From an uncultured Chloroflexia bacterium (GTDB lineage Bacteria > Chloroflexota > Limnocylindria > QHBO01), in contig CAVZAQ010000013.1 in the NCBI GenBank assembly GCA_963773405.1, positions 19,758-83,757 of the forward strand: DNA of 64,000 bases, written 5' to 3'. How positions within the stretch are numbered: position 1 is the first letter of the stretch; every line of letters starts with the position of its first letter. The notes under the pieces are model-generated. The model ran no database searches. It saw only the letters and a list, made by a program, of their open reading frames with translations, and was not told the origin of the DNA. The translations under genes and the position numbers were made by a program. Positions 370 to 64,000 of the stretch are shown one piece after another.

Positions 370-1452
370 ATGACCAGCAACCGGGATGACGCACGCGACG
401 GCGTCACGTTCACGAACCTCGATCAGCCCCTCTTCGACGGGGCGGACGCGACGAAGCGGGACCTCGTGGACTACCTCGACGCTGTCCGTGACCGCATCCT
501 CCCCGGCCTCGAGGATCGCCCCCTGTCCGTGATCCGCGTCCATCGGGGCCAGGAGGCCTTCATGCAGAAGAACCTCCCGAAGTACACCCCGGCCTGGGTG
601 CGCCGGGTCCGATGGTGGGCGGAGTCATCGAAGCGGGACGTCGAATACGCCCTGTGCAACGACCGGCGCACGCTGCTGTGGTTCGCGAACCAGCGGGCGG
701 TCGAGTATCACCCGACCCTGGTGCGCGTCGACCAGCCGAACCGCCCCACCCACCTGGTCCTGGACCTGGACCCACCGGATGCCGATGCCTTCCCGATGGC
801 GGTTCGCGCTGCGCGCGCCGTTCGCCAGGCCCTGTCCGATGCCGGCCTCAGCGGCGCGATCAAGACCAGCGGCGCCAAGGGCCTGCACGTGTTCGTGCCG
901 ATTGATCCGGAGACGACGTTCGAGGATTCGGCCGCCGCCACCCGGGCCATCGCCGCTCGGGCGGAGCGGACTCGATCCGGAGGTCGCCACCACCGCGTTC
1001 GTGAAGGCCGACCGGGGCGGGAAGGTCTTCGTGGACTCGACCCGGGTCGGCGGCGCCACGGTGGTCGCCGCCTACAGCCCGCGCGTGCGGCCCGGCGTTC
1101 CGGTCTCCTTCCCCGTCTCCTGGGACGATCCTCGACGACATCACTCCCGGGGACTTCACCATCCACACCGCGCTCGGCATCCTGGGCGACGGCGACCCCT
1201 GGCGCGAGCAGATGCCCGACCCGGCAGCGACTGCCGGCGGACCTGATCGAAGAGGGCCACGCAATCCCGGTTGCCCGGGTCCAGGCCATGCACGAGGGCA
1301 AGCGCCGCGCGCGCCTTCGGCGCACGTCGGGCGCGCGCGAAGGACGCGGGGTGAACCCTCAGCGAGATGTCAGCGGCTCCCTCGCTGCATGCTCGGTGGT
1401 CAGGCGCATCGCGGCGGCGTGCGCGGTGATGCCCTCGACGTCGGCCCGATAG
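370..1452 (+). pseudogene. ligD: LigD polymerase/primase (PolDom) domain protein of NHEJ, interrupted by at least 2 frameshifts (near 970 and 1140)
   Basis: ORF 370..1452 carries hallmark LigD PolDom motifs (RVHRGQ, KTSGAKGLHVFVPI). The homologous sequence continues in a second frame (LDPEVATTAFVKADRGGKVFVDSTRVGGATVVAAYSPRVRPGVPVSFPVSWDD, ORF 779..1246), then a third (LDDITPGDFTIHTALGILGDGDPW), then returns to the first. Single-base insertions are visible at gcggagcggActc and gatcCtcgac. Confidence 0.65.
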
Positions 1453-1517
1453 GAATCGTCGGCGAGTATGGATTCAGTCAAGCTGAACGACGGCAAGCGC
1501 TGGGCCGATCCTCCGCC

Positions 1518-2189
1518 TCAGTCCTCCTCGTTGTCCTCGAAGTCGGGCCAGGCCGCGATGTCGACCTTGTGGTTCTCGGGCGAGGCCAGGGTCCACCAAT
1601 GGGGCACATGCGTGTCGTCCGCCAGGCGTCCGCCGGCTTCGAGTGCTGCCGCGACTCGTGCTTCGGCCTGATCGGCCGGCACGCTGACGTCGATGTGGGT
1701 CCGGCCACGCCCGGGCTTCGGAGGCCGGAGGCCCTGGAACGACACGTGCGGGTTGCGCCGGTGCCGATCGACGACGTCCTCCTTCGGTCCCAGGCTCCTA
1801 TACCCGAGGGCTGCGGCCCAAAAGGGAGCCACGTCGGTATCGGCATCCTGTGCCACCGCGATGCCCACGACCTGGACCTGGGAGGGGTCCGGCTCAAGCT
1901 GCAGCTTCCGAGCCTCTGCCGAAATCCGGCGTGCCACTTCGACGTCACGCTGGCTCAGCGCTCCGTACTCCCCGGAGGCCGTCCGGACCGTGACTCCCTC
2001 GGGTCGGACGTCCACATCGGGGAAATGGCCCACGGCCTCGCCAACTTCGGCGATGGCGGCCACAAACCTCGCGGCCTCCGCGAACGATCCGACGCGGAAG
2101 TACGCATGAGCGCCAGAGAAGAGGACCCGCCAGTCCTGCACTCCGGCGGCCTCGTGGAATGCGCGTGCAGTCGTTCGCTTCTCGCTCAT
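1518..2189 (-). CDS. Pterin-4a-carbinolamine dehydratase-like domain fused to VOC/glyoxalase-like domain protein
   Basis: ORF 1518..2225(-) from internal Met MSEKRTTARAF... N-terminal half has a PCD-like motif (EAVGHFPDVDVRPEGVTVRTAS resembling E..GHHPD...W..V.V.L.TH). C-terminal half is VOC-like (VVGIAVAQDADTDVAPFWAAALGY...). Confidence 0.5.
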   Translation of the reverse strand: MSEKRTTARAFHEAAGVQDWRVLFSGAHAYFRVGSFAEAARFVAAIAEVGEAVGHFPDVDVRPEGVTVRTASGEYGALSQRDVEVARRISAEARKLQLEPDPSQVQVVGIAVAQDADTDVAPFWAAALGYRSLGPKEDVVDRHRRNPHVSFQGLRPPKPGRGRTHIDVSVPADQAEARVAAALEAGGRLADDTHVPHWWTLASPENHKVDIAAWPDFEDNEED

Positions 2190-2270
2190 GGCGCCGATGC
2201 TAGGCAGGAAGCCCGCTCCATGCAACGCGCCGCTGCGGAAGCGCCGGGAGCGAGGATTTCATCGTCCGCG

Positions 2271-3192
2271 CTATCCGAGCGACCGCTCGAACCACTCCTG
2301 CTTCAGGGGGCTCTCGGCGGGCTCGAATTGGAAGCTGGGCAACGTGCGCAGGTCGCGGTTCCAGCGGTAGAAGCCGGTGTTGAAGAGCTTCAGATTGGGT
2401 ATGCGCGCGATCGGCTCCAGGTCCAGGTCACGAATCTTGCCGAAGTTGACGAACTGCAGCGAGGGATGGCCGGCGAGCGGCGCGAGGGTCTCGACGTTGC
2501 GAACCTCAAGGATGTTGAGGAACTGCAGGGCGGGCAGGTCTCGCACCCACTCCAGCGTGGTGATGCGCCGAACGTCGGACAGGACGAGGTGCTCGAGGTT
2601 GGGGGCGTCGGAGATGCCCTGCATGCTGTCGAGATTCGGGCAGCCATCGATGACCAGGCGACGCAAGGTACGTCCGAACGAGCCGATGCCGTCGAGTCCT
2701 TTCAGGTCGGCACCGCCGAGGGTCAACGCAGACAGGGGCATCGGCCCAAGCGGGACGAGGTCGTCGAAGGGATAGCGTCCGACTCCAAGAGAGCGCAGCG
2801 TGCCGTGGCCGGAGCGAAGCGAATCGAGACCGTCCGGCGGGCACTCCTCGACACCGAACCACTCGAGGTGCGGGAACGCCTGGAGGTCGAGCGATGATCG
2901 GAAGCCGGCCAGGTTGAGCGACCGCAGCCGTGCCAGCCCATGAACCGGCGTGACGTCGACGGTGCCCTCGACCGAGAGAAACTCCAGGTCGGGAAGGTCG
3001 CGCCAGGAAGGCCAGGTCCTTGATCCCGACAGGCAGGGCCAGGGCGCGTGCCTGCCTGGCACGCGCCTCGGTCACGATGGCGACAGCTGAGGCTGCCCTA
3101 CCGGCGACCTTCCAGCGTCCCCCCGCGGCCGCGAAGGCCTCCCTCAGGTTGCGTGGGTAGTACTTCAGCTCTGATTGTTGGAGGACGCTCAT
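2271..3192 (-). pseudogene. Leucine-rich-repeat (LRR) protein with one frameshift near 3005-3015
   Basis: ORF 2271..3062(-) shows repeated L..L.L.G motifs (LRSLNLAGF, LSALTLGGADLKGLDGI, LRRLVIDGCPNLDSMQGISDAPNLEHLVLSD, LQFLNILEVRNVETL). The N-terminal continuation MSVLQQSELKYYPRNLREAFAAAGG...ALALPVGIKDLAFLA is in another frame (ORF 2506..3192). Confidence 0.45.
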
Positions 3193-3290: not shown

Positions 3291-3309
3291 GATGTATGCT
3301 CTATACATC
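3291..3309. promoter_or_regulatory. Perfect 7-bp inverted repeat GATGTAT-gctc-TATACATC abutting the RHH antitoxin start; putative autoregulatory operator
   Basis: gatgtatgctctatacatc read directly. RHH antitoxins bind palindromic operators overlapping their promoter/start. Confidence 0.5.
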
Positions 3310-3971: not shown

Positions 3972-4067
3972 TGAGCCGACCGGGGACCGATGCCGTCACG
4001 TGCTCCCGCCGGCTGAAGAACTGACCCCGGCCCTGAGGCCGGGGTCAGCGTCTGCGGGGTGCGAGCT

Positions 4068-4376: not shown

Positions 4377-4610
4377 ATACCTCCCTGCCCGGGCTCGGTC
4401 TCGCCATTGGCATTCGGCACGTGTCTCGGGCGACCGCGGCAAAGGGACACGTGTCGTGGAACGGCTGCAAATTCCAGCCACCCCGCGCAGTTCGCGGATG
4501 ATGCGGTAGCGGGGGGCGCCCGCATGTCAAGTGGGCGACAGGCGCCCTGCCTCAGCCCTGGGCGGCCGAGACCAGCGAATAGAAGCTCACCACCGCGACC
4601 GTGAGGGCCG

Positions 4611-8527: not shown

Positions 8528-8806
8528 GAGCAGCCCCGATCCTGCGGCGTCGGCGGACGAGCACAAAGAGCAGCAGGTCCGCCCGCCTTGCTCATCGCGC
8601 GACAGGAACGTGCTCGCCAGGTACCGCGGGATCGGGGTGACCTCGCCGCTGCTCGCCGCGGTCGACGCTCGGAGCGCGGCACGGTGGAACGTGCACGGCG
8701 CGAGCCCGTCCCGGGATGCGGACCTCGGGCCAGCGCGAGATTGACCCGCGGTCGTGGCCTCGATCAGGGCATCCGGCGACGCCATAGCCGGCGCGGCACC
8801 TTCGTC

Positions 8807-9047
8807 ATGACCCGCGGCTTGAAGATTTGCTGCGGCGGGACATGCCTTCCGCTTCCGTGCCAATGACCGCAGCGAACCACCGCACGTCCACGTCGAGGGC
8901 AACGGCGGACGGGCAAAGTTCTGGCTGCCCGATGCAGGACTGGTCCGGAGCGAGGGATACAATCGTCGGCAGTTGGCGGCTATCCAGATCATCGTGGCGG
9001 AGAACGCGGAACGCTGGCTGAGGCAATGGCATGACTTCTTCAACTAG
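8807..9047 (+). pseudogene. DUF4160 family protein (second copy), N-terminus disrupted by a 1-nt frameshift near 8824
   Basis: ATG at 8807 gives MTRGLK in one frame. The DUF4160 body (FAAAGHAFRFRANDRSEPPHVHVEGNGGRAKFWLPDAG...WHDFFN) is in the -1 frame and preceded by an in-frame TGA at 8820. Ends at 9047 with the same 17-nt overlap to its DUF2442 partner as copy 1. Confidence 0.5.
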
Positions 9048-23620: not shown

Positions 23621-23738
23621 GTTCGGCGTTCACATCAATACTGACGCGCGCAGCCCGGGTTTCGGGTGAACGGAGAACCGAAAATGTCGCAGCGAGTGGG
23701 CTTTGGGGATACTCTGCGCTCGGCAAGGGGGAACGGCG

Positions 23739-41915: not shown

Positions 41916-43134
41916 ACGGGGTGTCAGCGGGCCGATGGCGCCGTGACAGAGGGACCAGCCGGGGAGGCTCCGCCCACGGCGGGTGCGACGGGGCCGGCGG
42001 GGCAACCAGCCGGAAGAGCATGGGCCCCAGGGTGGAGGACACCGCGGCGAGCAGGACGATGCTCGACTGCAGTGGGCGGTCGATGACGCCCAGCCGCACG
42101 CCCAGCTCGGCCACCGCGATGATCAGGCTCAGTCGGGCGGAGAGCAGGAGCCCCGCAGCCAGGACGGAGCGCATCGGCAGACCCAGCAGGCGCAGGGGGA
42201 GCGCCGCCGACGACCTTGATCGCCAGCGCCAGGGCGATGAGCGCCAACGTGATGCGGAGCGCCACGGGGTCGCCCAGCGCGGAGAGGTCGAAGCGGATCC
42301 CGACCCCAATGAAGAAGACCGGGATCAGGAACCCGTAGGCAAAGCCGGCGAGCTTCTGGTCCAGCGTTCCCCGGTACGGGAAGACGAGGGCGAAGACGGA
42401 TCCGGCCATGAAGGCGCCCAGGATCGGCTCGATCCCCAGCACCAGGGCCAAACCCACCAGGACCAGCATCAGGGCCAGCGTGGCGCGGATTCCGACCTCC
42501 TCCGGATCGTCCACGTCGAAGAGGCGCCGGAACGACTCCGGCCACCACCAGGCCATGCCGCCTCACCGCCATCAGCCCAAAGCCGATGACCGCGAAGAAG
42601 GCGGGGACCGCCAGCAGCGAGACCGCGGTTCCCGAGTCAGTGACGAGCGCCAGGCAGGTGACGGCGATCAGGGTCAGGAAGTCCGCGACCAGCGCGGATA
42701 CCAGGATCGCCTGGCCCAGCGCGGTGCCCATGTGGCGCGTGGTGCGCAGGGTGGGCACCACCATCCCGACGCTGGTGGTGGCCAGCACGAACATCGTGAA
42801 GAGGCCGTACCCGAGCAGCCAGACGGATCCGGCCGAGGCCGCCAGGGTGATCCCGAAGACGAGCAGGCCCACCGCCAGCTGGGCGCGCGCCCGTCGACCG
42901 AAGCCCGGCCAGGTTGATCTCGAAGCCCGAGAGGAACATGAGCAGGAAGAAGCCCAGCTCCCCGAGCTGGCTGATGAAGTCCGTCAGGCTGACGAGGTGC
43001 AGGACCGGGCCTACCGCGACCCCGAAGAGGATCTCCAGGACCGGCGCCGGAACGCCCACCCGGCGCGCGACGAGCGGCAGGGCGAACGCTGCAACCGCGA
43101 TGACGATGAGGGTCGCGGCGGCGCTGGAGTCCAC
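41833..43134 (-). pseudogene. Monovalent cation:proton antiporter (CPA/Kef-type Na+/H+ exchanger family), split over 4 frames by at least 3 frameshifts
   Basis: N-terminus MDSSAAATLIVIAVAAFALPLVARRVGVPAPVLEILFGVAVGPVLH...FLLMFLSGFEINLAG (ORF 42637..43134) continues in ORF 42129..42872 (LLVFGITLAASAGSVWLLGYGLFTMFVLATTSVGMVVPTLR...), then ORF 41924..42556 (LALMLVLVGLALVLGIEPILGAFMAGSVFAL...GFLIPVFFIGVGIRFDLSAL), then ORF 41833..42309 (LRLLGLPMRSVLAAGLLLSARLSLIIAVAELGV...). Confidence 0.65.
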
Positions 43135-43139: not shown

Positions 43140-44746
43140 TAGCTGCCGCGCCCGGACGGCGGCGTCGTGCTCGTGGGGACGCCGGGGACGAGCAGGACCG
43201 AGCATGGGCGCGCGAAGGACGAGGTGACCGGCAATGCCCGGAGCCCAGACCCGCGGCGTCGTGGACGGCAGGCCCATGACCAGCAGGTCCGCGTTGGCCG
43301 CCTCTGCCCGCAGGATGCGCACGGGGTTCCCCTCGCGGACCATGCGCCGAAGGTGGATCCCCTGCACGGAAGCCGCCTCACGCATCCGCCCCAGGGCCAC
43401 GACCGCCTCCGCCCGGGCATCGCTGGCGGCCATGAACGCCGGCGGGCGGACCGCGATCCCGGTCAGCTGAGCCTTGGTCTGCACCGCAAGGTCAATGGCC
43501 GCCTGCGAGGCGGCCCGCCCGGCATGCGTCTCGCGCGCCGGGGCCAGGATGGTCGCGATAGCCGGCGCCCTCGCCCCGGACCAGGAGCACGGCGACGTGC
43601 TGGGCCAGCGCGGCGCGCAGGAGCCCCACCGCCGCGAATCGGCCGCCCGGAGGGGGCAGGACGGCAACCCCGGCATGAGCGGCGCGTGCCGCGGCGATCA
43701 CGGCATCCGCGGAGCCCGACTCCAGCGCCGCCTCCGTTACGGTGATCCCCTCCGCCCGCTCGGTCGCCGCCTGGATCAGGGCCCGGATCTCTCGCGTCTC
43801 CACGGAGGGCTCGGCGGACGCCTCCTCCGGGCCCGGCTCCCCGTCGTCGTCGACGTCGCCATTCCCGCGCGGAGACCTTGGCCTCCGGCTCGCCGTTGGG
43901 CCCCATGGGCCTGTGCAGCAGCAGCAACCCCTCCGCCGCGCTGTTGCGGACGAGGTGGATCGCCGCGGGCAGCAGGCGCTCCAGGTCCTCCGGCGAATGG
44001 AGGCGCACCGCAATGAGGCTGCCGAAATCGGCCGGGAATCGGGCCGTGGCGGTCGTGAAGGTGCGCACCACCATGGGGTAGTCCGCCGTGGCGCAGACCA
44101 CGGTCACCAGGTCCCCCTCCTCGAGGACCGTGGCGCCGTGCGGCACGATCAGCGCCCCCCGGCGGCTGATGGCGGCGATCAGCGTCCGCTCCAGCTCGAG
44201 CTCTCGCAGGGGGCGACCAACCAGCGGCGAGTCCGCCGCGATCCGGAACTCGATCGCCTGGGCCATCCCCTCCGCGAACGCGGCCGAGCTGACCCGGCGC
44301 GGCTCGAGCTGGATCTCCAGGCGACGCGCCGTCAGGCGCGCCGGGGAGAAGGCGACGAAGTCCTCGCTGCGGTACGCGTTGATGCTCTCCGGACCGGCAG
44401 CCACGGCCGCGATGCGCGGGACGCCCGCCGCCTTCGCGATCCGGCACACCTCCAGGTTGGCGCGGTCGTTGCCGATGGCGGCCACCACCGCATCGGCCCG
44501 GTCCAGGCCCGCCCGCTCGAGCACCACCCGGCTGGTGCCGTCGCCCAGCTCCAGGCGCGTCTCCCCCGCCGATGCCGCCGATGCCGCCGGCCGGCCCGAT
44601 CCATTGCCCGTTTCGCCGGAGCGCGCGTCGCGAAGCAGGTCGAGCCGTTCCTGGTCGTTGTCGACGACCGTGACCTGCCAGGCCTCCGAGAGTCCTCGCA
44701 ACAGATCGCGGGTGATGCCACCCGCCCCGACGACGATGAGCTGCAC
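43140..44746 (-). pseudogene. TrkA-N/TrkA-C (RCK) domain protein with two C-terminal universal stress protein (UspA) domains, split by at least 2 frameshifts
   Basis: MQLIVVGAGGITRDLLRGL...VVDND (Rossmann) ... TrkA-C (SPLVGRPLRELELERTLIAAISRRGALIVPHGATVLEEGDLVTVV), then Usp-like ...AEGLLLLH / (frame 2) ITVTEAALESGSADAVIAAARAAHAGVAVLPPPG...HVAVLLVRGE / (frame 3) AIDLAVQTKAQLTGIAV...ADLLVMGLPS...GHLVLRAPMLVLLVP. Sits directly upstream of the antiporter. Confidence 0.55.
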
Positions 44747-45091: not shown

Positions 45092-46296
45092 ATGAGCAGC
45101 ACCGCGGCCCTCAAGCACGCGCGCAGACCTTCTCCGCCGGCAGATCCTGATCGACGGGCACAACGACCTGCCCTGGGCGATCCGCGAACGCGGAGGGCGC
45201 GCCGGGCGACATCGGCGCCTACGAGCTCGTCCGGGAGCGGCGCCAGCCGGGGATCGCCCGGGGCCACACGGATTTCGCGCGCGCCCGACGGGGCGGGCTG
45301 GGCGGCCAGTTCTGGAGCGTCTACGTCCCCGGCGAGGGCGGGATGGACGCCCGTCCGGCGCGCACCCAGCTGGAGCAGCTGGACCTGGCGCGGCGGCTCA
45401 TCGACCGCTACCCGCGACACCTTCGCTTCGCGTGGTCAGCGCGCGAGGTCCGCGAGGCGTTCGCCGCGGGGCGCATCGCCAGCCTGCTGGGTATGGAGGG
45501 CGGGCACGTCATCGAGAACTCGCTGGGCGCCCTGCGTGCGTTCGCCGACCTGGGCGCCCGCTACATGACCCTGACCCACAACAGGGCCAACGACTGGGCG
45601 GACTCCGCCACCGATGCGCCGCGCCACGACGGCCTCTCCGACTTCGGCCGCGAGGTGGTCCGGGAGATGAACCGGATCGGGATGCTGGTGGATCTCTCCC
45701 ACGTGGCGCCGTCGACGATGCGCGACGCGCTCGACACCTCCGAGGCGCCGGTGATCTTCTCCCACTCCTCGGCGCGGGCCCTGTGCGACGTCCCGCGCAA
45801 TGTCCCCGACGAGATCCTGCGCCGGGTGCCGGCCAACGGCGGGGTGGTGATGATCACCTTCGTCGCCGGCTTCGTCTCGCCCGATGCCGCCGCGATCCTG
45901 GTGCCGGCCATCGCGGAAGTCGGCGAGCGGCTGGCCGGCGTCACGGATCCAGCCGAGCGGCGCGCCATCCAGCGCGAGGTCCTCGAGGGGCTGGAGGTGC
46001 CCATCCCGCCGCTCTCGGTGGTGGCCGACCACGTCGAGCACGTGGTGGCGGTGGCGGGGATGGAGCACGTGGGGCTGGGTGGCGACTTCGACGGCACGGT
46101 CTTCCTCACCCGCGGGCTCGAGGATGTCTCCGGCTACCCGAACCTGTTCGCAGAGCTGCTGTCGCGCGGATGGTCCGATGCCGATCTCGCCCGCCTGGCG
46201 GGCGGCAACGTCCTGCGCGTGATGCGCGAGGCGGAGGGTGTCGCGGCGCGCCTGCGGCGCGCCGGGCGCGAGGCGTCGCTGGCCGCCATCGGCTGA
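45092..46296 (+). pseudogene. Membrane dipeptidase (peptidase family M19), N-terminal 40 codons spread over 3 frames (2 indels)
   Basis: ORF 45343..46296: GHVIENSLGALRAFADLGARYMTLTHNRANDWADSA...VDLSHVAPSTMRDALD...VIFSHSSARALCDVPRNVPDEIL...HVGLGGDFDG: M19 motifs. Upstream, MSSTAALKHAR (frame 1), LLRRQILIDGHNDLPWAIRERGG (frame 2) and GDIGAYELVRERRQPGIARGHTDFARARRGGLGGQFWSVYVP (frame 3) form the conserved N-terminus. Confidence 0.65.
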
Positions 46297-47175: not shown

Positions 47176-48007
47176 CCCGGACGTGAACGCGCTGCTGGAC
47201 GCCGTCGGTGCGGCCTTGCCCAATCTCGGCCTCGCCCTCGTGGCGGTTCTTGCCCTGATGACCGCCCTGTGGCTGCTCAGCCTGCCGCTGCGCAACGCGA
47301 GCATCGTGGACATCGCCTGGGGGCCGCTCTTCGCGCTCCAGGCGCTCGTCTACCTGGCGGTCACCCCGGATGGGTTCGGGGGCCGCAAGCTGATCCTCGC
47401 CGTCCTGGTCGTGGTCTGGGCCGCGCGCCTTGCCTGGCACGTTGCATCCCGCAACCTGGGCCAAGGGGAGGACTTCCGCTACGCCGCGTGGCGCCGCGAC
47501 GCCGGCGCATCGTGGTGGTGGCGCTCGTTCCTCCGCGTCTTCGTCCTCCAGGGCGTCCTGGCCTGGGTGATCGGCATGCCCCTCTTCGCCGCAATGGTCG
47601 GCGGACCGCAGCACTGGACGCCGATCGACGCCATCGGCGCAGTGGTGTGGGCCATCGGCTTCTTCTTCGAGGCGGTCGGTGACTGGCAGCTGCGGCGCTT
47701 CGTCGCGAACCCCGCCAACCGGGGAACCACCATGCGCTCCGGCCTGTGGGCCCTCACCCGCCACCCGAACTACTTCGGCGACGCCACGCAGTGGTGGGGA
47801 TTCTGGTTCCTCGCGCTCGCGGCCGGGGGCTGGTGGAGCGTCTTCTCCCCCGCCCTCATGACCTTCCTGCTCGTCCGCGTCTCCGGGGTGGGCCTCCTGG
47901 AACGCGAGATCGTCGCCCGCCGCCCCGACTACGCCGAGTACATGCAGACGACCTCCGCCTTCATCCCGTGGTTCCCACGCCACCGCACCGGGAGATCAGC
48001 CCAATGA
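47176..48007 (+). CDS. DUF1295 family (steroid 5-alpha-reductase-like) membrane protein
   Basis: ...SLPLRNASIVDIAWGPLFAL...LTRHPNYFGDATQWWGFWFLALAAGG: DUF1295 signature. Start uncertain (ATG 47111, GTG 47176 or ATG 47258). Confidence 0.5.
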
Positions 48008-49792
48008 TCCTCAGCAGCTCCGAGACGATCCGCGCCTACACGAATGCCGGCTGGTGGGGCACCACCACCCTCCTGGACCTGTGGAACGCGAACGTCGCCG
48101 CCCACCCGGAGCGCACCGCCCTGGTCGATCCCCCGAACCGCGCGCGAGCTGACCGTGGGCGCGCCGCAGCGCTGGACCTACGCGGAGGCCGATGACCGGG
48201 CCACCCGCCTCGCGAGCGCGCTCCGCACGGCCGGAGTCGGGCGCGACGACGTGGTCATGGTCCAGCTCCCCAACATCGTGGAGCTGCCGCTCGTCTACCT
48301 CGCGGCGCTGAAGCTTGGGGCCGTGGTCTCGCCGCTGCCGGTCCAGTACCGGCAGCACGAGCTGCGCCACACCATGGGCGTGGTGCAGCCGCGGGCCTTC
48401 ATCACCGCGACCCGATGCACCGGGTTCGACCACGTGGCCATGGTCTCCGCGCTGCGCTCCGAGGTGCCATCGCTCTCGCCGGATGTGGTCGTCGCACTGG
48501 CGGAAGACGGCGATGCGCTGCCGGACGGCGTGCTGGCGCTGCGCGGCATCCTCGAGACCGATGGCGCCCTCCCCGCGTTCGAGGGCCTCACTCCGGGGTG
48601 GGACGCCAACGAGATCACCACCATCTGCTGGACCTCCGGCACGGAGGCGGAGCCCAAGGGCGTCCCGCGCAGCCACAACATGTGGATCAGCATCGCCTAC
48701 GGGACGACGGACGGCGCCCGCCTGGCCGATGGCGCGGTGATGCTCAACCCGTTCCCCATGGTCAACATGTCGGGGATCGGCGGGATGCTGGTGCCCTGGC
48801 TGCAGGTGGCGGGCACGCTGGTCATGCACCATCCCATGAGCCTCCCCGTGTTCCTTGCCCAGGTCGCGACGGAGCACGCCGAGTACACGGTGGCGCCGCC
48901 CATCCTGCTGAACATGCTGCTCGCCAACGAGGCGCTGCTGGCCGCGGCCGATCTCTCGTCGATGCGGGTCATCGGCTCCGGCAGCGCGCCGCTCTCCGCC
49001 TTCATGGTGGAGGGCTGGAAGAACCGGTTCGGTATCGACGTCCTCAACTTCTTCGGGTCGAACGAGGGGATCGCGCTGGTCGGCGACCCGGCGACCGTGC
49101 CCGATCCGGGCGAGCGGGCGCGCTACTTCCCGCGCTTCGGGACACCCGGTCCGCGCGCCGCTGGCGGCGACCTCGGGGAGTGGGGCAACCGCGCCGCCCT
49201 GGGCATGGAGACCCGGCTCCTGGACCCGCTCAGCGGGGAGCCGCTCACCGCCCCGGACCAGCCCGGCGAGCTTGCCTTCCGCGGCCCCACCCTCTTCCCC
49301 GGCTACTACCACCGGCCGGAGATGACCGCGCGCGCCTTTGACGCGGACGGCTTCTACCGCACCGGCGACCTGTTCGAGGTCCCGGCGGAGCGGCGGGATC
49401 GACTTCGCTTCGTGGGACGTGCCCGCGACCTCATCATCCGCGGCGGGATGAAGGTGGCCCCGGAGGAGCTGGAGGCGCTCATCGCCAGCCATCCGGCGGT
49501 CGCCGAGGTGGCGGTGGTGGGAATCGAGGACCGGCGGCTGGAGGGCGAGCAGCGGATCTGCGCCGTGGCGGTCCTGCGTCCGGAGACGTCGCTGACCATG
49601 GGCGAGCTGCGGGCGTATCTCGCGGAGCGGCAGATCGCCGCCTACAAGATGCCCAAGGAGCTGCTGATCCTGGACGCACTGCCGCGCAACCCGGTGGGCA
49701 AGGTCCTCAAGCGCGATCTTCGCATGCGGCTCGAGGGTCGGGGTGTCGGGCGCTCGGTGGCCGAGTCCGAGGGCGAAGCGACCCACGCCTGA
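48005..49792 (+). CDS. AMP-dependent acyl-CoA synthetase/ligase, with one frameshift near 48140
   Basis: MILSSSETIRAYTNAGWWGTTTLLDLWNANVAAHPERTALVDPPNR (ORF 47746..48195 tail), then ELTVGAPQRWTYAEADDRATRLASAL... in ORF 48044..49792, with AMP-binding motif ICWTSGTEAEPKGV and C-terminal YRTGDL...GRARDLIIRGGMKVAPEELE. Confidence 0.7.
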
Positions 49793-50478: not shown

Positions 50479-51687
50479 TCAGGCGTCGCGGGAGGTGAGG
50501 TCCTCCAGCGTCTCGCGGCGACGAGAGAGTCGCGCCTCACCCCCCTCCACGACGACCTCCGCCGCGCGCGGACGACCGTTGTAGGTCATCGACATCGCAG
50601 CGCCGTAGGCGCCCGCGCGCCCGATCGCCAGCAGGGCGCCCCGCCCGCACCGCGCCAGCTCCCCGGGGGAGAGCCAGCGGCGGAGATCGCGGGAGAGGAC
50701 GTCGCCCGCCTCGCAGATCGGCCCCGCCAGATCGACGCGCGGCGCGGCGGCGAGGGCCTCCCCGGGGGCCAGCAGCGCGACGGGATGGTCCGCCCCGTAG
50801 AGGACCGGGCGGATCAGATCGGTCATGCCCGCATCGGCCACCAGGTAGGTCAGGCCCTCCGCTGCCCGCGGCTGGACGCGCACCACCCGGGTGACCAGCC
50901 AGCCGGCATCGGCGACCAGGCTGCGACCCGGTTCGCAGATGAGCCGATGGCGCCCGAACCGCGCCCCTGCCGCATCCGCGAGCCGCGACAGGATCTCCGG
51001 GTCCGTGGCGGCGAGCCCGCCGCCCAGGTCGATCCGCTCCGGCGCCAGGCCGGCGGCGAACGCCGTCGCCTCGACCTCGGCCAGGCGGTCGAGGAGGGCC
51101 AGGTGGGCCGCCACGCCCTCGATACCGGAGCCGATGTGGGCGCCCAACCCGGCCAGCGGCAACCCGGCACCGCCCAGCATGGCGAGCGCGGCGGGAAGAT
51201 TGTCGAGCGGAATGCCGAACTTTGCCGACCCGGCGCCGGTGGCCAGGTGCGGATGGGTCGCTGCCTCCAGCGCCGGGTTGACGCGCAGCCCGATCCGCGG
51301 ATGCGTGGCGGCCGGGGCGAGACGCATCAGGACGTCCAGGTCGTCGAGCGACTCCGCGTTCACCAGCGCGCCGGCCTCGAGGCCCTCCCGCAGCTCCTCG
51401 TCGCGGCGCCCGACCCCGTTCATCACGATCCGATCCGGGGGACAGCCGGCGCGCAGCGCGAGCGCCAGCTCAACATCGGTGACCACCTCGCAGCCCGCGC
51501 CATCGGCGACGAGCCGGCGCAGGAGCGCCGGATCCGCGTTGGCCTTGACGGCGTAGGCGACCAGCGCCTCCGGGAACGCTGCGCGGTAACGGGCCAGGTT
51601 GGCGGCCGCGGCGTCCAGGTCGGTGATCCAGACGGGCGTCCCCCAGCGAGAGGCTGCGTCGACGAGGAAGGCGGGGGTGGCGGTCAC
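50479..51687 (-). CDS. PLP-dependent Orn/DAP/Arg decarboxylase family protein (diaminopimelate decarboxylase-like)
   Basis: ORF 50479..52143(-). Conserved part begins ~VTATPAFLVDAASRWGTPVWITDL...YAVKAN...; ...GGGLAA...; C-terminal ...ICEAGDVL... Start taken at GTG 51687; the upstream in-frame 150 codons are not family-like. Confidence 0.6.
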   Translation of the reverse strand: MTATPAFLVDAASRWGTPVWITDLDAAAANLARYRAAFPEALVAYAVKANADPALLRRLVADGAGCEVVTDVELALALRAGCPPDRIVMNGVGRRDEELREGLEAGALVNAESLDDLDVLMRLAPAATHPRIGLRVNPALEAATHPHLATGAGSAKFGIPLDNLPAALAMLGGAGLPLAGLGAHIGSGIEGVAAHLALLDRLAEVEATAFAAGLAPERIDLGGGLAATDPEILSRLADAAGARFGRHRLICEPGRSLVADAGWLVTRVVRVQPRAAEGLTYLVADAGMTDLIRPVLYGADHPVALLAPGEALAAAPRVDLAGPICEAGDVLSRDLRRWLSPGELARCGRGALLAIGRAGAYGAAMSMTYNGRPRAAEVVVEGGEARLSRRRETLEDLTSRDA

Positions 51688-52161
51688 CGCCCGGAGGGTG
51701 TCTCGCTCGAGCGCGCCTCGACCGGTCGCCCGGGACGGCGGCCCGAGTCGGCGTCCGGCTTCCACGCCCGGGCGCGGTAGGCCGTCACGTAGTCCGCGGC
51801 ACCCCGCTCGGCGAAAAAGGCGTCGGCGGCTGCTGCGGCCGCCGCTCTGCCTCACGGAAGCGCCCGCGGCCAGGTGCCCCACCGCCAACCGGAGCCGGGC
51901 GAGGAGCGTGATCTCACCAACGTCGTCGAGGGCTCGTTGCGCGGCGCCGAACGCGATCCGGCCCTCCTCCCAGCGTTGCGTCGACGAGCTTCGCAAGGGT
52001 AGTGCCCATCTGGTGGATGGCCAGCGTGCGGGGTGCGCCATCGGCGATCGGCTCGAGCGCCTGCAGCGCGGGCGCGATCCACTCACCCTGCGCGGATGCC
52101 GCTCCGGCGAAAAGAATGGCCGTGGCGCCCGCAAGGGCCGCATCGCCCACGCTCTGGCCCT

Positions 52162-55100
52162 TCAGTCCAGCCTCGCGAGCCTCCTCCCAGCGACCCTGGG
52201 CGATGTGCAGCTCGCCCAGCAGGGACGAGAGGCCTGCGGTGGCCTGCGCGCTGTCCAGGACGACCGGCCGGCTCGTGCAGGCAGCCGCAGCTGCGTCTCC
52301 GCCTCATCCGGGTCGCCGCGGTAGATCCGCCTGCGAATGAGCTCCGTCTCGAACCAGGTCGCGTAGAAGCCGGAGGCATCGGCCCGCTCAACCTCCATTT
52401 CGGGCAGCCACGCGTCCCAATCACCCAGGTCGAACGACGTGCCCAGCGCGACACCGATCGCCTGCTGCATCCGGGTGCGCAGCCCGAACCGCTCGGCGAT
52501 CTCATGCTGCTCTCCAACCAGGGTCAGCGCCGAGCGGAGGCTGATCCCACCAATCAGGATCTGCAGGTTGTTGCGGGCGCGGAGCGCGTTCATGGGGTTG
52601 CCGGCCAGGTCCGCCACGCTGATGCAGCCGCGAAGGGTCACCTCCGCCTCCGTGATGACGCCGACGTTGAGGAGCGCGGTCCCCTTGGTGATCAGGATGT
52701 CGACGAGGTCGGTCTGGGTGAGGACGGCCTGCTGGGCGAGAACGCGGTCGCACCATTCGATCGAGCGGCGATCGCCCGAAATCATCAGCGCCCGTGCCAG
52801 CTCCGCCTGGGCTCGCGCCACCTCCCGCGATGACGGGAGGCCCTCTGCGTCGGCGAGCGCCGCCTCGAGGATCTGGATCGCGGCGCGGTCACCGTGCTCC
52901 GTGAGCTTGGCGGTGGCCTGCAGCGTGCGCGCGCGCAGGATCCCGACGCGGTCGCCGAGTCGGCGGGAGATCTGCTCCGCCTCGTGGCCGTGGGCGATTG
53001 CCGCCTCGATGCGGCCCGAATGCATCGCCGCATTGCCGGCGCGCTCCTGGAGTGCTGCCTGCTCGGCCGGATCCGCGGTCACCTCGAGCGCCTGCTCCAG
53101 GTACTGCTCCGCGCCCACGAACGAGTGCAGCGCCATGGCCCGATCCGCGGCCGCGCGCAGGACGATCCGCGCCTGCGCCGCGAGCGCATCGGCTTCCGCT
53201 CCGTCGGCGGTGGCGCGGTAGGCCGCGAGGTAGTGGCTGGCCAGGACGCCGGCGATCTCGTCCTCGCCCAGCGCCTCGTAGAAGCGCGCCGCGGCCACGT
53301 GCTTCGCACGACGGTCCCGCTTCGCGAGCGACTGGTAGGCGACCTCGCGGACCACGCCCTGGACGAACCGGTGCTGGCCGCGCTCAGGCGATCGGGGGTC
53401 CGCGTCCAGGGCCAGGATCTCGTGCCGCACCAAACCCGTCAGGCGCTCCTCCAGGCTGTGGCCATCGAGACCGCTCACCGCCGTAAGCGCATCCAGGCTG
53501 AAGGAGAGGCCCAGCACGGACGCATCCGTGACGAGGGACCGCTCCTCGGGATCAAGCGAGTCGAGGCGGGCGGCGATCAGCGCGTGCAGCGACTCGGGAA
53601 CCACCAGCTCCGGGAGATCCTGCACCAGCGTGTATCGGCCGTCCTGCTCGTGGAGGATGCCGCGGTCCAGGAGCATTCGCAGCGTCTCCACCGCGTAAAG
53701 CGGCACGCCCTCCGCTCGCCCCACGATGGCGCGCAGCGCCGGCTCCGGCATCCCAGGCACCAGGCCGGTGAGCAGGAGGCGCATGTCGTCGTCGGAGAGG
53801 GGCTCGAGGTGGATGGAGGTCGCCGCGCGGACGCCCTGCCCCCACCCGGGGCGCCGCTCGAGGAGCTCGGGGCGTGCCTCAGCCAGGACGAAGATCGGCG
53901 AGCTGCGGGCCCAGGTGAGCAGATGTTCCACGAAGTCGAGCAGACCCTGGTCCGCCCACTGCAGGTCCCAGAAGACGAGGAGCACCGTTCCCTGTTCCGC
54001 CATCCGCTCGAAGAAGGTGCGCCAGGCCGCGAAGAGCTCTTCGCGGGACTCCTCCGGGAGATCGTCCAGGCCCAGCAGACCGGCCAGGCGGGGCTCGATC
54101 CAGCGCCGCTCGGCCGGATCCGTCACGAACTGCTCCACGGTCGCGCGCAGCTGCTCTCGTGCGACCGCCGGGTCGTCCGACTCCGCGATCCCCGCGCGGC
54201 CGCGCACCATCTCGGCCAGCGCCCAGTAGCTGATCCCCTCGCCGTACGACGGGGAGCGGCCCTCGTGGAACCAGATGTTCTCCACGACCCCGTCGAGGTA
54301 CTTCTCGAGCTCCCAGCCGAGCCGGCTCTTGCCGATGCCTGCCTGGCCGATGATCGTCACCAGCCGCGGCTTGCCCTCGCGGGCGGTGGCGTGGAACTGC
54401 TCCTTGAGCGCACGCAGCTCCTCGTCTCGCCCGACGAACGGCGGCTCAAGCTGGGCCGCGCGCCCGGATCCGCCGCGCCGGGCGACGACCGCGGTCGCGC
54501 GCCAGACGGGGACGGGGGCGGCCTTTCCCTTGAGCTCGCGATCACCCGCCTCCTCGAAGGCGATGGCGTTCGATGCGGCGCGCATGGTCGCCTCGCCCAC
54601 CAGGACGTTCCCCGGCTGCGCCGCCGACTGGATGCGAGACGCGGTGTTGACCAGGTCGCCGGCGACCATGCCCTGGTTCGTGGCGCCAATGGTGACCGCC
54701 GCCTCCCCGGTCAGGACCCCTGCCCGGGCCGCCAGGTGCTCGTCGCCGATCTCCATGGCTCCGACGGCGGCGACCAGCTCCAGGGCGGTGCGGACCGCGC
54801 GCTCCGCGTCGTCCTCGTGCGCGGTGGGTGTGCCCCAGACCGCCATCACCGCGTCCCCGATGAACTTCTCGATGATGCCGCCGTGGCGTTCGACGATCTC
54901 CTGGGCCGTCTCGAAGTAGCGGCTCAGCAGGTCGCGCGTCTCCTCCGCGTCGTGATGCTCCGAGACGGTGGTGAACCCCACCAGGTCGGTGAACATGACC
55001 GAGACGAGGCGACGCTCCGCGACGGCGGCGGTCGGCTGTCCCTCGCCCGTGGCTGATCCCGGGGTGGCTGAGGGCTCAGCAGGGGCAGATGCTCCCGACA

Positions 55101-55248
55101 TCGCGGTGCCGCACTCCCGGCAGAACTTGGCACCACCGGGGTTGTCCGTGCCACACGACGGGCAGGCGACCGCCATGCGCGCTCCGCACTCGATGCAGAA
55201 CTTGGCGCCGGGCTCATTGGCCGTGCCGCAGGCGGTGCAGGTCAGCAT
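52162..55248 (-). CDS. Multidomain signalling protein: double zinc ribbon + class III adenylate/guanylate cyclase + AAA/NB-ARC-like ATPase + TPR repeats; C-terminus probably frameshifted
   Basis: MLTCTACGTANEPGAKFCIECG...CPSCGTDNPGGAKFCRECG; cyclase VSVMFTDLVGFT...GDAVMAVWG; Walker A IIGQAGIGKSRL; long helical TPR-like C-terminal half. The final ~45 residues of the ORF look non-native, and TPR-like sequence continues in another frame downstream. Confidence 0.7.
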   Translation of the reverse strand: MLTCTACGTANEPGAKFCIECGARMAVACPSCGTDNPGGAKFCRECGTAMSGASAPAEPSATPGSATGEGQPTAAVAERRLVSVMFTDLVGFTTVSEHHDAEETRDLLSRYFETAQEIVERHGGIIEKFIGDAVMAVWGTPTAHEDDAERAVRTALELVAAVGAMEIGDEHLAARAGVLTGEAAVTIGATNQGMVAGDLVNTASRIQSAAQPGNVLVGEATMRAASNAIAFEEAGDRELKGKAAPVPVWRATAVVARRGGSGRAAQLEPPFVGRDEELRALKEQFHATAREGKPRLVTIIGQAGIGKSRLGWELEKYLDGVVENIWFHEGRSPSYGEGISYWALAEMVRGRAGIAESDDPAVAREQLRATVEQFVTDPAERRWIEPRLAGLLGLDDLPEESREELFAAWRTFFERMAEQGTVLLVFWDLQWADQGLLDFVEHLLTWARSSPIFVLAEARPELLERRPGWGQGVRAATSIHLEPLSDDDMRLLLTGLVPGMPEPALRAIVGRAEGVPLYAVETLRMLLDRGILHEQDGRYTLVQDLPELVVPESLHALIAARLDSLDPEERSLVTDASVLGLSFSLDALTAVSGLDGHSLEERLTGLVRHEILALDADPRSPERGQHRFVQGVVREVAYQSLAKRDRRAKHVAAARFYEALGEDEIAGVLASHYLAAYRATADGAEADALAAQARIVLRAAADRAMALHSFVGAEQYLEQALEVTADPAEQAALQERAGNAAMHSGRIEAAIAHGHEAEQISRRLGDRVGILRARTLQATAKLTEHGDRAAIQILEAALADAEGLPSSREVARAQAELARALMISGDRRSIEWCDRVLAQQAVLTQTDLVDILITKGTALLNVGVITEAEVTLRGCISVADLAGNPMNALRARNNLQILIGGISLRSALTLVGEQHEIAERFGLRTRMQQAIGVALGTSFDLGDWDAWLPEMEVERADASGFYATWFETELIRRRIYRGDPDEAETQLRLPARAGRSSWTARRPPQASRPCWASCTSPRVAGRRLARLD

Positions 55249-61347: not shown

Positions 61348-61788
61348 CGGACATCAGTGTCGCTTATGACCTTCATCTGAGCAATTGCTTTGACTGATAC
61401 TACGCCATCGGCCAGAGTAGATGCATGACGTATCAAAACCTGACCACGAACGCGCTGCCGCGACTGAGGTTCGGCACGCGTCGCACCCCCCGCATCTCCG
61501 CGATCCTGGAGGGGCTGCGCCTGCGCCGGCCTCCCGTCGACGAGCCCGAGGTCATGACGACCGCGGAGCTCGCCGAGTGCGGCTGCCCCGACTGGTGCCA
61601 CCGCGACCACCACAACGAGTAGGCACCCCACCCCTCGCAGCTCATCGTGGAGGTCCATTCCATGACCGTGACCCAGCTCCCGCCTGCCCCGCCGGGCAAC
61701 GACGCCCGAGACGGGCCTCGTCGAGACGCCGCTCCTGCCCCCGGGCTTCGGCATCCCCGCGTCCCGATTCGAGAATCCATCCACGCGC

Positions 61789-62838
61789 ATGCGCCGCCTG
61801 CTCGAGACGGAGCCCTACCTCTTCGGCCCGGGCGTCTACGACCCCATGGGCGCGCAGCTCGCCATGTACCACGGGTACAAGGCCATGTACTTCAGCGGCT
61901 ACAGCTTCGCCATCGCCCACCTGGGCACCACCGACATGGACCTCTACTCCGGCCCGGAGATCGCCGATGGCGCCCGCCGGACGGTGAGTGCGCTGCGCAA
62001 GTTCCAGCTGACCCAGGCGGTGGGCGATCCCGAGAAGGGGGTCGCTCCGCGCCACCTGGAGATCCCGCCCCTCGTGGTGGACATGGACGGTGGGTACGGG
62101 AACATCTTCAACGTCCAGCGCACCACCGAGCTGTACGTCGGGGCGGGGGTTGCCGCGGCGCATATCGAGGACCAGGTCCTCCCCAAGCGCTGCGGGCACA
62201 TTGGCGGAAAGGCGCTCATCCCGGCATCCGAGATGGTCGGCAAGCTGCGGATGGCGCGCGCGGTCGCGGACGACCTGGGGAATCACGATTTCGTGGTCAT
62301 CGCCCGCACGGACGGCCTCTCCGCGATCGACGCGCCCGAGCCCGCGCGTGGCCTGGACCTGGCCGTGGAGCGAGCGCTGCGCTACCTGGACACCGGGATC
62401 CCCGACCTCGTGTGGTGCGAGTTCCCCACCTCGGACCGCGGACCGGTGGAGGAGTTCTCGCAGCGGGTCCGCTCGCGCTTCCCGGAGGCGCGCTTCGCCT
62501 TCAACTGGTCGAGCAGCTTCAAGTGGTTCCGCGATCCGGAGCCGATCACCTTCGCCCAGCTGGGCGAGCTGGGGTTCCGCTTCATCTTCATCACCCTGGG
62601 CGCCCAGCACGCCACCGGCTATGGACTCAACCAGCTCCTGGTGGAGATGGCAGATGGTCAGCAGGACGGATACATCGCCCTGCAGCGCCGGGAGTGGGAG
62701 GGCAACCTGGACGTGCCCACGCGCTCGCACCACCAGTTCAGCGGGGTCCCCTACCACCACCTGATGGGCAAGGCGTATGACGCCGCGCGCCTGGGATCCG
62801 ACTTCGTGGAGGAGCTTGACGAGGAGCGCGTGGTCTAG
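61789..62838 (+). CDS. Isocitrate lyase / PEP mutase family protein (short ICL or 2-methylisocitrate-lyase-like)
   Basis: KAMYFSGYSFAIAHLG...DMDGGYGN...EDQVLPKRCGHIGGKALIP...IARTD...FNWSSSFKW: ICL-family catalytic motifs (K-C-G-H). Possible N-terminal extension in a neighbouring frame. Confidence 0.7.
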   Translation: MRRLLETEPYLFGPGVYDPMGAQLAMYHGYKAMYFSGYSFAIAHLGTTDMDLYSGPEIADGARRTVSALRKFQLTQAVGDPEKGVAPRHLEIPPLVVDMDGGYGNIFNVQRTTELYVGAGVAAAHIEDQVLPKRCGHIGGKALIPASEMVGKLRMARAVADDLGNHDFVVIARTDGLSAIDAPEPARGLDLAVERALRYLDTGIPDLVWCEFPTSDRGPVEEFSQRVRSRFPEARFAFNWSSSFKWFRDPEPITFAQLGELGFRFIFITLGAQHATGYGLNQLLVEMADGQQDGYIALQRREWEGNLDVPTRSHHQFSGVPYHHLMGKAYDAARLGSDFVEELDEERVV

Positions 62839-62859
62839 GCGCACGCGGGCCGCGGAGCG

Positions 62860-64000
62860 TCAGGGAGCCGCAGAAGGGAGTGCACCCCCGGGCGGCTCCT
62901 TCGCACCTGCTCGATCCCGGACCGACGCCACCAGCAGTGCCGCCCCCACGTACGAGCAGGCCATTACCCCGAAGGCGGCCGGATAGCCGAGGCCCTGGGC
63001 GACCAGCCCAATCACCCAGGCCCACGCCGCACCGATCCCGAACGCGGCGGTGAAGTACACCGCGAACGCCACGTCCCGCAGAGGCCCGGTGGCGCGGTCG
63101 GCCAGGAAGGCCTGCAGTACGGGCGACTCGGAGAAGACGGCGGCGCCGAAGGGGAGGAGGAGCGGCACCAGGACGACGAGATTCGCGCCCGCGGCCAGGA
63201 ACGCCACGATCCCCGCGGCCATGAGGCTGTAGTAGACGATGAGGGTCCGCCGTCGGCCGTATCGGTCACTGATCCAGCCCGCCAGGAGCGGCCCCACCAC
63301 CGCGCCCACCAGGAGCAGCGCGTAGAGGGTGGCGGTGGTGCCCTCGTCGAAGCCCAGCGGCCCGGACAGGTAGAGGAGCATGAACGGGGCGAGGATGTCC
63401 AGGCCCCGCCCGCCGGCCGCGACCAGGGCAGCGGCGAGGATGGCACGCAGGTCGCGACGGGCCAGCACCTCCCGGACCTGTCCGCGCACGGAACCCTGCG
63501 CACGAGCCGCCCGGCGGTACGCATGGTGGTCCTCGCGGACGAAGACCAGGATCGCGATCCCCACCAGGACCGCGGGTGCGCCAAACAGCGCCAGCGTCGC
63601 CTGCCAGCCCACGCTATGGATGAGCGCAACTCCCACGAACGGGACCAGGATGGTGCCCACGTTCCCCCCGCTGATATGGGCGCTGATGCGCGAAGCCGCG
63701 CCGGTCGGACGGGTAGACGTCCGAGAGGAGCGCGTTGCCCACCGGGTGCTGGGGACTGCTCCCGATCCGCGAGGCGCTGATGGCGGCCAGCAGCTGCCCC
63801 ATCCCGCGGGAGAGCCCGCCGGCCATGAGGCTCACCCCGAACAGGATCTGGCCGCCGCCGAGGAGGACGGGCCTGGCCACGTACCGGGTAAGGACCCCGT
63901 ACGACAGCTGCATGAGCCCACCGACCGCCGTGGTGATGGCGATGAAAAGGCCGATGTCGCTGGGCCGCAGCCCGAACTGCACGACCACGACCGCGTAGAT
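62860..64000 (-). CDS. MFS transporter, 5' end beyond window; one frameshift near 63670
   Basis: ORF 63614..63988(-) (…GNALLSDVYP) and ORF 62860..63660(-) (GTILVPFVGVALIHSVGW...) are contiguous MFS sequence in two frames; 10+ TM helices. Confidence 0.6.

Follow-up and report, generated by a model that had tools for sequence, protein, structure and literature searches.

Comparison of the 64,000-nt window (the whole stretch of DNA analysed here) with profiles, proteins and DNA of relatives revealed 22 homology-confirmed frame breaks in 11 genes; these breaks are very probably base-level consensus errors of a Nanopore-only metagenome assembly, and the genes of the organism itself would then be intact. 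A sequence-only reading had proposed uncorrected indel errors rather than pseudogenes, which is supported by breaks private to this contig, a contrast between sequencing platforms, low dN/dS, zero nonsense codons and clustering by position. The same reading counted at least 15 interrupted genes, which was too many, the confirmed number being 11, or up to 13 with two possible cases; its junction coordinates were nearly all correct within ~30 nt, as judged by DNA alignment. Break density in the window is ~1 per 3 kb, with ~20% of genes affected, and lies far above that of finished genomes.

The G+C content of the window is ~70%, at which long spurious open reading frames (ORFs) are common, and we therefore demanded that homology continue across frames. 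Break sites were placed by DNA alignment to syntenic relatives, whose intact proteins match the window piecewise in different frames with contiguous query coordinates. Rfam and tRNA scans gave no matches.

Frame breaks in individual genes

The interrupted genes, including two without confirmation, are as follows.

370..1340, plus strand: LigD primase-polymerase; three +1 breaks (~970, 1129 and 1223), the frame passing from 1 through 2 and 3 back to 1
2274..3192, minus strand: LRR protein; one +1 break between 3034 and 3002
8806..9047, plus strand: DUF4160 copy 2; probable break near 8824
23072..23629, minus strand: ECF sigma factor; candidate break in a G-run near 23590
25513..28661, minus strand: class II ribonucleotide reductase nrdJ; three breaks (-1 at ~28578, +1 at 28124, -1 at 26952)
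33598..36382, plus strand: HdrA-type flavoprotein fusion; one +1 break at 34540
41927..43134, minus strand: CPA antiporter (Na+/H+ exchanger); four breaks (+1 at 42903, 42564 and 42208; probable fourth at 41988)
43142..44746, minus strand: TrkA-N/TrkA-C/Usp protein; three +1 breaks (43869, 43554 and 43208)
45092..46296, plus strand: membrane dipeptidase (Peptidase_M19); two +1 breaks (45125 and 45186)
48004..49792, plus strand: AMP-binding protein (acyl-CoA synthetase-like); one +1 break at 48144
51687..55248, minus strand: DZR/guanylate cyclase/AAA_16 protein; three breaks in the tail (~52285, 51978 and ~51850)
62863..64000, minus strand, running past the window end: MFS transporter; one +1 break at 63688

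Conserved protein had been said to continue across frames, and in the confirmed genes intact homologs do run on between frames, as do Pfam profile coordinates in nrdJ, LigD, CPA and the HdrA fusion. In the LigD gene, for which two or three shifts had been suggested, the Pfam LigD_Prim-Pol profile is split over two frames (positions 1-176, then 176-232), and the intact 322-aa ortholog from locus L002 matches piecewise in three frames; DNA alignment places three insertions. The single shift proposed for the LRR gene is reproduced by a 305-aa homolog (P0365), which follows frame -2 with residues 1-52 (3192-3034) and frame -3 with residues 62-305 (3002-2274).

The nrdJ gene carries the three shifts that had been described, one of them inside an 18-nt tandem repeat, according to Pfam continuity and a six-sequence DNA alignment that placed the sites. 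Ribonuc_red_2_N is located in ORF 27685-28842; ORF 26919-28196 holds Ribonuc_red_lgC positions 1-348, and ORF 25513-27132 holds positions 361-523 together with TSCPD. The break at ~28578 falls within the NGHGTG repeat: the N-terminus MARSATPTTAAAAKTNGHNGHGTGNG agrees with L084 and then shifts, one 18-nt repeat unit reading CCCGG, not CCACGG. A 937-aa Logan protein in the same cluster as a 598-aa fragment indicates that full-length nrdJ exists. In public protein databases the nrdJ of the window stands as a 406-aa "protein". For the HdrA-type fusion, a single shift had likewise been read correctly: Pfam Pyr_redox_2 positions 1-47 and 95-291 lie in separate frames, and the intact 927-aa L084 ortholog follows frame 1 for residues 1-314 (98% identity) and frame 2 for the remainder. 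Over 6.9 kb aligned between the window and L084 at 94% identity, the one at 34540 is the only single-base indel in coding sequence.

Three shifts had been claimed for the CPA antiporter; all three were found, and the probable fourth at 41988 makes that count probably too low. The Pfam Na_H_Exchanger matches (3-71, 70-188, 191-307 and 309-371) are spread over four ORFs. L085 encodes an intact 399-aa ortholog with 97-99% identity in the first two pieces; the first 192 residues reach this identity in spite of two shifts, and the C-terminal APSAR-stop agrees with L085 in frame -1 only. The adjoining TrkA-Usp gene had been credited with two shifts, a count that has to be raised to three: four pieces in three frames are needed to match the intact 531-aa ortholog of L085, DNA alignment agrees, and Pfam TrkA_N and TrkA_C share one frame with Usp in another. 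Two shifts within 120 nt in the dipeptidase gene were recovered by DNA alignment to the intact 402-aa L085 gene; its homologs (about 120) are ~400 aa long, and the window ORF has no start codon before 45343. The one shift expected in the acyl-CoA synthetase gene is also present, since the L085 ortholog matches frame 1 with residues 1-47 (91% identity) and frame 2 with residues 43-585; AMP-binding_C is complete, and the stop codon of the gene is therefore the natural one.

The DZR-cyclase-ATPase tail, previously considered only probably shifted, contains three breaks. The first 988 codons are clean and the breaks are confined to the last 200 of 1,189 codons, where the C-termini of L085 and L086 match segmentwise in frames -2, -1, -2 and -3, up to a matching stop. 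The single MFS shift that had been predicted is confirmed by orthologs from L024 (to residue 168) and L008 (to residue 215), which correspond to 64000-63689 in frame -1; the next ortholog residue resumes at 63687 in frame -2, and Pfam MFS_1 is divided between both pieces.

Two further cases are less firm. DUF4160 copy 2 probably carries a frame break near 8824, judging from the reading frames: the Pfam match (positions 3-65/65) starts 7 codons past an in-frame stop and has no in-frame start codon, and the ATG at 8806 is in a different frame. The shift claimed for this gene is thus probable, not confirmed. In the ECF sigma gene at 23.5 kb, regions 2 and 4 are both intact in one frame; the TTG at 23545, which is the sole start codon in this frame, would truncate region 2.1, and L087, the one useful locus from a metagenome scan, reads GTG at the window's GTC.

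Several other frame changes were discarded. A short-read relative has the same structure as the four overlapping ORFs at 55.3-59.3 kb, which are therefore distinct genes, and further changes on the codon-usage path were ordinary gene boundaries; the genes concerned are RHH/PIN, PadR, and ECF sigma with a neighbouring ORF. The window also holds one genuinely truncated gene remnant, a DUF2075 C-terminal fragment (13177-13689) beside an IS transposase.

Relatives, platforms and the indel spectrum

Each break is private to the contig analysed here. Every testable site is read through in a single frame by syntenic relatives (80-94% nucleotide identity), as seen in L084 (94%), L085 (80-90%), L086, L002 and the short-read locus L004; the comparison with close relatives called for earlier thus found intact orthologs wherever a site could be tested. 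In the case of nrdJ, the window and the related loci L083, L084, L001 and L002, whose contigs have Flye-style names, each have indels of their own at different alignment columns, and short-read L004 is intact over 28124, the sole junction that it covers. Outside the window, which was left out of these counts, 18 phase-confirmed junctions were found in 141 kb of Flye-style/MFD loci versus 3 in 352 kb of short-read loci, the platform being read from naming ("contig_N" or MFD titles as Flye-style; k141 and NODE as short-read). The rates of 1.28 and 0.085 per 10 kb differ ~15-fold (p = 8e-8). A junction was counted only with a codon-phase change in the subject, raw counts being contaminated by frameshifts in query genomes, and ORFs were filtered by codon-position G+C. 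L085, which has a Flye-style name, had 0 confirmed junctions in 18 kb; error rates therefore vary from one assembly to another, this contig being an unusually poor case.

The MFD long-read MAGs are Nanopore-only, built by Flye assembly plus one Medaka round (PMC12313526), and use the same contig naming in GTDB records. The ERZ accessions appear to belong to the MFD project, and this contig would, judging from its relatives and its length of 313 kb, share the platform. Nanopore bins under ~40x coverage require short-read polishing, as indels give frameshifted gene calls (PMC9262707).

The clustering of the breaks tracks position, not gene: nine fall in 3.5 kb across three genes and both strands (P = 2e-4), and overall the breaks are grouped in local patches of 0.3-3 kb. 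In 13 of the 16 aligned +1 insertions the inserted base differs from both neighbours (it equalled a neighbour in 3 of the 13 insertions of the first context test). Homopolymers in the window reach 7 nt at most, only the ECF sigma site, itself an unverified break, is located in a G-run, and the breaks as a set do not show the homopolymer-run signature of classic Nanopore errors. The private indels of the relatives are insertions in every case; L084 nrdJ reads GCG-TCAG-CCTG where others have TC or AG, both serine-codon variants standing in tandem. A model in which both alleles are kept received no significant support, 12 of 14 insertions abutting the third codon position versus 2/3 expected (binomial, p ~0.1). 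CGCG/GCGC context occurred at 6/13 sites against a 9.5% background (p = 7e-4), an association noticed post hoc, and at 0/3 hold-out LigD sites.

Our results are consistent with the following course of events. The host would be a high-G+C soil Chloroflexota (Limnocylindria-like), its genome assembled from long reads; consensus building and polishing would have added single bases and, less often, dropped them, in patches of 0.3-3 kb with poor read pile-up, and gene callers would then have cut each affected gene into fragments. Candidate causes of the patches are low coverage, reads of co-occurring close relatives on conserved genes, or modified bases.

Selection and the alternatives

A mixture, with assembly errors behind most breaks but true lesions or naturally differing start sites behind a few, is improbable. 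Its candidates are the ECF sigma N-terminus and DUF4160 copy 2, which are without ortholog support, and the CPA and DZR C-termini, which are variable, such tails being the least conserved parts (for DZR, 60% amino-acid identity and a dN/dS of 0.39). However, the tail segments match relatives in each frame up to the same terminal stop, and no single break has positive evidence of being real.

That the frameshifts are real, through recent massive gene inactivation (reductive decay) with repeated lesions in already dead genes, is very unlikely. Several genes do have three or four breaks, as dead genes would, and the DUF2075 remnant beside the transposase is truly truncated. Dense disrupted genes with multiple lesions per gene are also the likeness to Mycobacterium leprae-type pseudogenisation, but the window differs in having no nonsense codons, internal deletions or relaxed dN/dS, and its lesions are not common to relatives. 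Repaired genes contained 0 in-frame stops alongside 22 frame breaks, and no internal deletions were found in affected genes, as the sequence-only reading had stated. Its argument that real decay should add nonsense mutations holds, though less strongly than implied: under a neutral spectrum we estimate roughly 4-9 nonsense mutations per 22 indels. Measured against relatives 6-20% divergent, and hence insensitive to very recent inactivation, dN/dS was 0.07-0.18 in broken genes versus 0.08-0.43 in intact neighbours, and 0.09-0.20 after the first shift, the divergent DZR tail excepted; purifying selection has not weakened beyond the shifts. Decay is further opposed by nrdJ being broken at differing sites in five related long-read contigs and intact in short-read data, by clusters that span gene and strand boundaries with DZR broken in its tail only, by +1 insertions that do not duplicate the neighbouring base, unlike slippage mutations, and by short-read relatives without such junctions.

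We regard as scarcely credible a more specific form, in which an insertion-biased Limnocylindria-like soil bacterium is caught in the first moments of large-scale inactivation, before substitutions have accumulated; if the indels were real, the genes already broken would include those for the class II ribonucleotide reductase, LigD, and the cation antiporter and its TrkA-Usp partner. Programmed ribosomal frameshifts or transcriptional slippage used for expression, for which the only support is that +1/-1 shifts occur in otherwise intact genes, can practically be dismissed, as orthologs are single-frame at every site, no shared slippery motif was found at the break sites, and a gene may have up to four shifts.

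Likeness to known errors and practical meaning

The preferred reading, consensus error, describes a known kind of artefact of low biological interest, and its importance is practical. The breaks resemble indel errors of Nanopore-only (Flye plus Medaka) MAGs in being single-base breaks in conserved genes at about this density, private to the assembly and absent in short-read relatives, with selection signatures intact. The classic form of such errors consists of homopolymer insertions and deletions, whereas the breaks of the window are patchy, +1 in 17 of 22 cases and seldom at homopolymers. Systematic modification-induced (methylation-related) Nanopore errors are mainly mismatches, not insertions, and thereby differ from the window's mostly +1 insertions; a motif-specific effect would agree with the partial CGCG/GCGC association, which is weak and was noticed post hoc. 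Modification-induced errors are reported to be dependent on sequence context, variable between organisms and persistent despite depth (PMC11610603, PMC12392509). For those who develop polishing tools, the spectrum of errors may be of interest, with its patchy non-homopolymer +1 insertions, often in conserved genes shared by co-occurring relatives.

If the breaks are consensus errors, the contig needs polishing or frameshift-aware annotation. The IDEEL test was devised to find such indel errors, which fragment gene calls. In public protein databases ~20% of this contig's genes stand in pieces, as do many genes from related public contigs, which inflates protein family and pseudogene counts. Metabolic reconstruction is distorted as well, since the ribonucleotide reductase, antiporter or dipeptidase seem broken, and the breaks could be mistaken for decay of the genome in a soil lineage about which little is known.

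Frame breaks in conserved genes

G+C content is ~70% all along the window, which makes ORFs alone (404 of at least 60 amino acids were listed) weak evidence for genes there. We built a six-frame codon-usage path over the window, and homology then had to continue across each frame change; the changes in the path coincide with most of the junctions listed in the sequence-only reading, which had proposed that at least 15 genes carry uncorrected indel sequencing errors and are not real pseudogenes. Breaks, that is, single-base frame changes inside otherwise conserved genes, were recognized where intact proteins of relatives align to the window piecewise, the pieces changing frame but following one another directly in query coordinates, and the lesions were placed by DNA alignment. 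This yielded 22 breaks in 11 genes. Homology continues across the frames and the breaks are thus real, with small corrections to the original list, on which 11 genes are now confirmed and the second DUF4160 copy is probable.

Breaks by gene (window positions, placed by DNA alignment unless otherwise described)
970, 1129, 1223: LigD primase-polymerase, +1 at each
3192-3034 and 3002-2274: LRR protein, the pieces on either side of its break
~28578, 28124, 26952: nrdJ, -1, +1 and -1, respectively
34540: HdrA-type fusion, +1
42903, 42564, 42208: CPA antiporter, +1 at each
43869, 43554, 43208: TrkA-Usp protein, +1 at each
45125, 45186: dipeptidase, +1 at each
48144: AMP-binding enzyme, +1
52285, 51978, ~51850: DZR-cyclase-ATPase, frame changes all within the final 200 codons
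63688: MFS transporter, +1

The nearest relatives are uncultured Chloroflexota/Candidatus Limnocylindria MAGs. They include L084 and L083, from the same sample (ENA ERZ25039500, contig_6513 and contig_6514); L085 (ERZ25039539, contig_27988, 735 kb); L086, L001, and L002, with names in the same "contig_N" style; and L004, from a short-read Chloroflexota MAG, with a contig name of the k127 type. L084 shares 94% DNA identity with window positions 31.3-38.2 kb, and L085 shares 80-90% over 36.9-55.8 kb.

Pfam matches pass from frame to frame in the same way. In nrdJ, Ribonuc_red_lgC residues 1-348 are followed by 361-523 and TSCPD in another frame, with Ribonuc_red_2_N in a third ORF; the LigD match covers 1-176 and then 176-232, Pyr_redox_2 in the HdrA-type fusion covers 1-47 and then 95-291 in a different frame, and Na_H_Exchanger in the antiporter is spread over four ORFs (3-71, 70-188, 191-307, and 309-371). 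The antiporter probably has a fourth frame change at 41988, judging from its C-terminal APSAR-stop, which agrees with L085 solely in the other frame. Every segment of the DZR-cyclase-ATPase tail agrees with its counterpart in L085 and L086, and the stop is common to all. Homologs of the LRR protein are ~305 amino acids long in an exhaustive protein search; the N-terminus of one of them, P0365, matches the first piece and the remainder matches the second, in another frame. The second DUF4160 gene is probably also broken, since its domain starts 7 codons past a stop, an in-frame start codon is absent, and the available ATG belongs to a different frame. The ECF sigma gene, with a break listed near 23590, is a further candidate; its sigma regions 2 and 4 are intact in a single frame.

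At ~28578 in nrdJ, one unit of an 18-nt repeat reads CCCGG, not CCACGG, and the remaining N-terminus is identical to that of L084. This tandem repeat (28502-28617, minus strand) codes for NGHGTG units, and its copy number and unit sequence vary among the window, L083, L084, L001, and L002.

Several other candidates were rejected. The apparent stop in the AMP-binding enzyme is a natural one, after a complete C-terminal domain, and that in the DZR tail came from a segment read in the wrong frame. Four overlapping ORFs at 55.3-59.3 kb are separate genes, as L004 has the same arrangement, and other frame changes in the codon-usage path simply mark the borders between genes.

Sequencing errors or gene decay

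Each break occurs in the window alone; at every site, relatives read through. In nrdJ, private indels differ among five contigs with Flye-style names (the window, L083, L084, L001, and L002), and site 28124 is intact in short-read L004. A full-length protein of 937 amino acids, from a Logan assembly, shares a 90% cluster with a 598-amino-acid fragment. At site 28124 the window has an extra C and L084 an extra T in the same alignment column, indicating either an error-prone site across independent assemblies or an ambiguous alignment. A survey of the window and 86 related loci looked for neighboring alignment pieces that differ in frame, and a junction counted only where the subject itself shows a change in the codon phase of its G+C content. 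Flye-style or Microflora Danica (MFD)-titled loci, with the window excluded, held 18 junctions in 141 kb and short-read loci held 3 in 352 kb, i.e., 1.28 versus 0.085 per 10 kb (P = 8e-8); contig naming and the titles of records served to infer the platform.

Genuine decay would leave other traces. Indels are about one-tenth as frequent as substitutions in bacterial mutation spectra, so 3 to 4 neutral indels per 1.2-kb gene should bring dozens of substitutions and some stops; neither was seen in the broken genes, and a search of the repaired genes for in-frame stops found none. dN/dS is 0.07-0.18 in broken genes (window versus L085 or L084), 0.09-0.20 past the first shift outside the divergent DZR tail, and 0.08-0.43 in intact neighbors. 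Residues 1-192 of the antiporter are 97-99% identical to L085 across two shifts. The private occurrence of the breaks, the platform contrast, the low dN/dS, and the lack of stops after repair uphold the reading as errors, not pseudogenes.

The contig's probable type of assembly points the same way. GTDB records whose contigs are named in this style belong to long-read MAGs of Microflora Danica, and we infer that the ERZ accessions and the window belong to that project. Its catalogue relies on Nanopore reads alone, with Flye as the assembler and a single round of Medaka polishing, and its authors described a Nanopore-associated drop in coding density among MAGs of lower coverage (PMC12313526). 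The same group found that Nanopore bins below ~40x need short-read polishing and that indels lead to frameshifted gene calls (PMC9262707).

Other features of the window

Positions 3300-17700 look like a mobile or defense island, with lower G+C and a weak coding signal at 14.9-17.7 kb, around the TIR effector protein.

Features at 3300-17700
3304-3968: RHH antitoxin and PIN toxin
5109-5607 and 8806-9339: two DUF4160 genes, each with a small ORF downstream
~10647-12527: full-length DUF2075 paralog (DUF2075 ATPase)
13177-13689 (plus): only the C-terminal part of a DUF2075/Schlafen-group-3 helicase (profile 259-353/354)
14082-14915 (minus): IS4/5-family transposase (DUF4096 and DDE_Tnp_1), adjoining the preceding ORF
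15344-16183: protein with a CAP12/Pycsar-type TIR effector domain

The ORF at 13177-13689 has the appearance of a true remnant of a truncated gene, so real gene fragments are not wholly absent from the window. At 31490-39607 (plus strand) lies a conserved operon, sulfur-carrier and heterodisulfide-reductase in type and syntenic in L084, L085, and L086; it encodes an HTH regulator, DrsE_2, DsrE, TusA, FlpD, the 927-amino-acid HdrA-type fusion, a 581-amino-acid HdrA-like protein, an 81-amino-acid protein, and a 401-amino-acid Fe-S protein. Tandem 163-amino-acid hemerythrin-domain paralogs (40429-40917 and 41096-41584, minus strand) share ~60% identity, and each is 94-95% identical to its L085 counterpart.

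Character and possible causes of the breaks

The breaks are clustered, with a median spacing of 356 nt and nine within 3.5 kb (P = 2e-4); the patches lie at 0.9-3.1, 26.9-28.6, 41.9-45.2, and 51.8-52.3 kb. Clusters track position, not genes: the patch at 41.9-45.2 kb spans three genes on both strands, and breaks in the DZR gene are confined to the last sixth of its length. Insertions predominate (+1 in 17 of 22 breaks; sign test, P = 0.017), and the relatives' private indels in the nrdJ alignment are all insertions. The errors are not of the homopolymer type: the inserted base matches a neighbor in 3 of 13 insertions tested, and in the LigD gene, whose three insertions were aligned afterwards, the added base likewise mostly differs from its neighbors. 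A CGCG/GCGC context at 6 of the 13 sites (P = 7e-4) was a post hoc observation whose enrichment failed in three hold-out sites.

Mixed alleles are one possible source of inserted bases. At columns 1734-1735 of the nrdJ alignment (~27349), L084 reads GCG-TCAG-CCTG where others have TC or AG; its TCAG places both synonymous serine codon variants in tandem and resembles a consensus from a mixed pile-up of two co-occurring strains. Co-occurring relatives with cross-mappable reads do exist, since L083 and L084 come from one sample and their nrdJ copies are ~90% identical. The codon-position test of this idea was nonsignificant (binomial, P ~0.1). Each of four causes would fit the data: low local coverage, cross-mapping of related populations to genes that are conserved, stretches left unpolished, and modified bases.

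Our results support the view that the breaks are a known kind of assembly artifact and no biological feature. Their interest is practical: the contig requires polishing or frameshift-aware annotation, and gene fragments from the window are already present in public protein collections.
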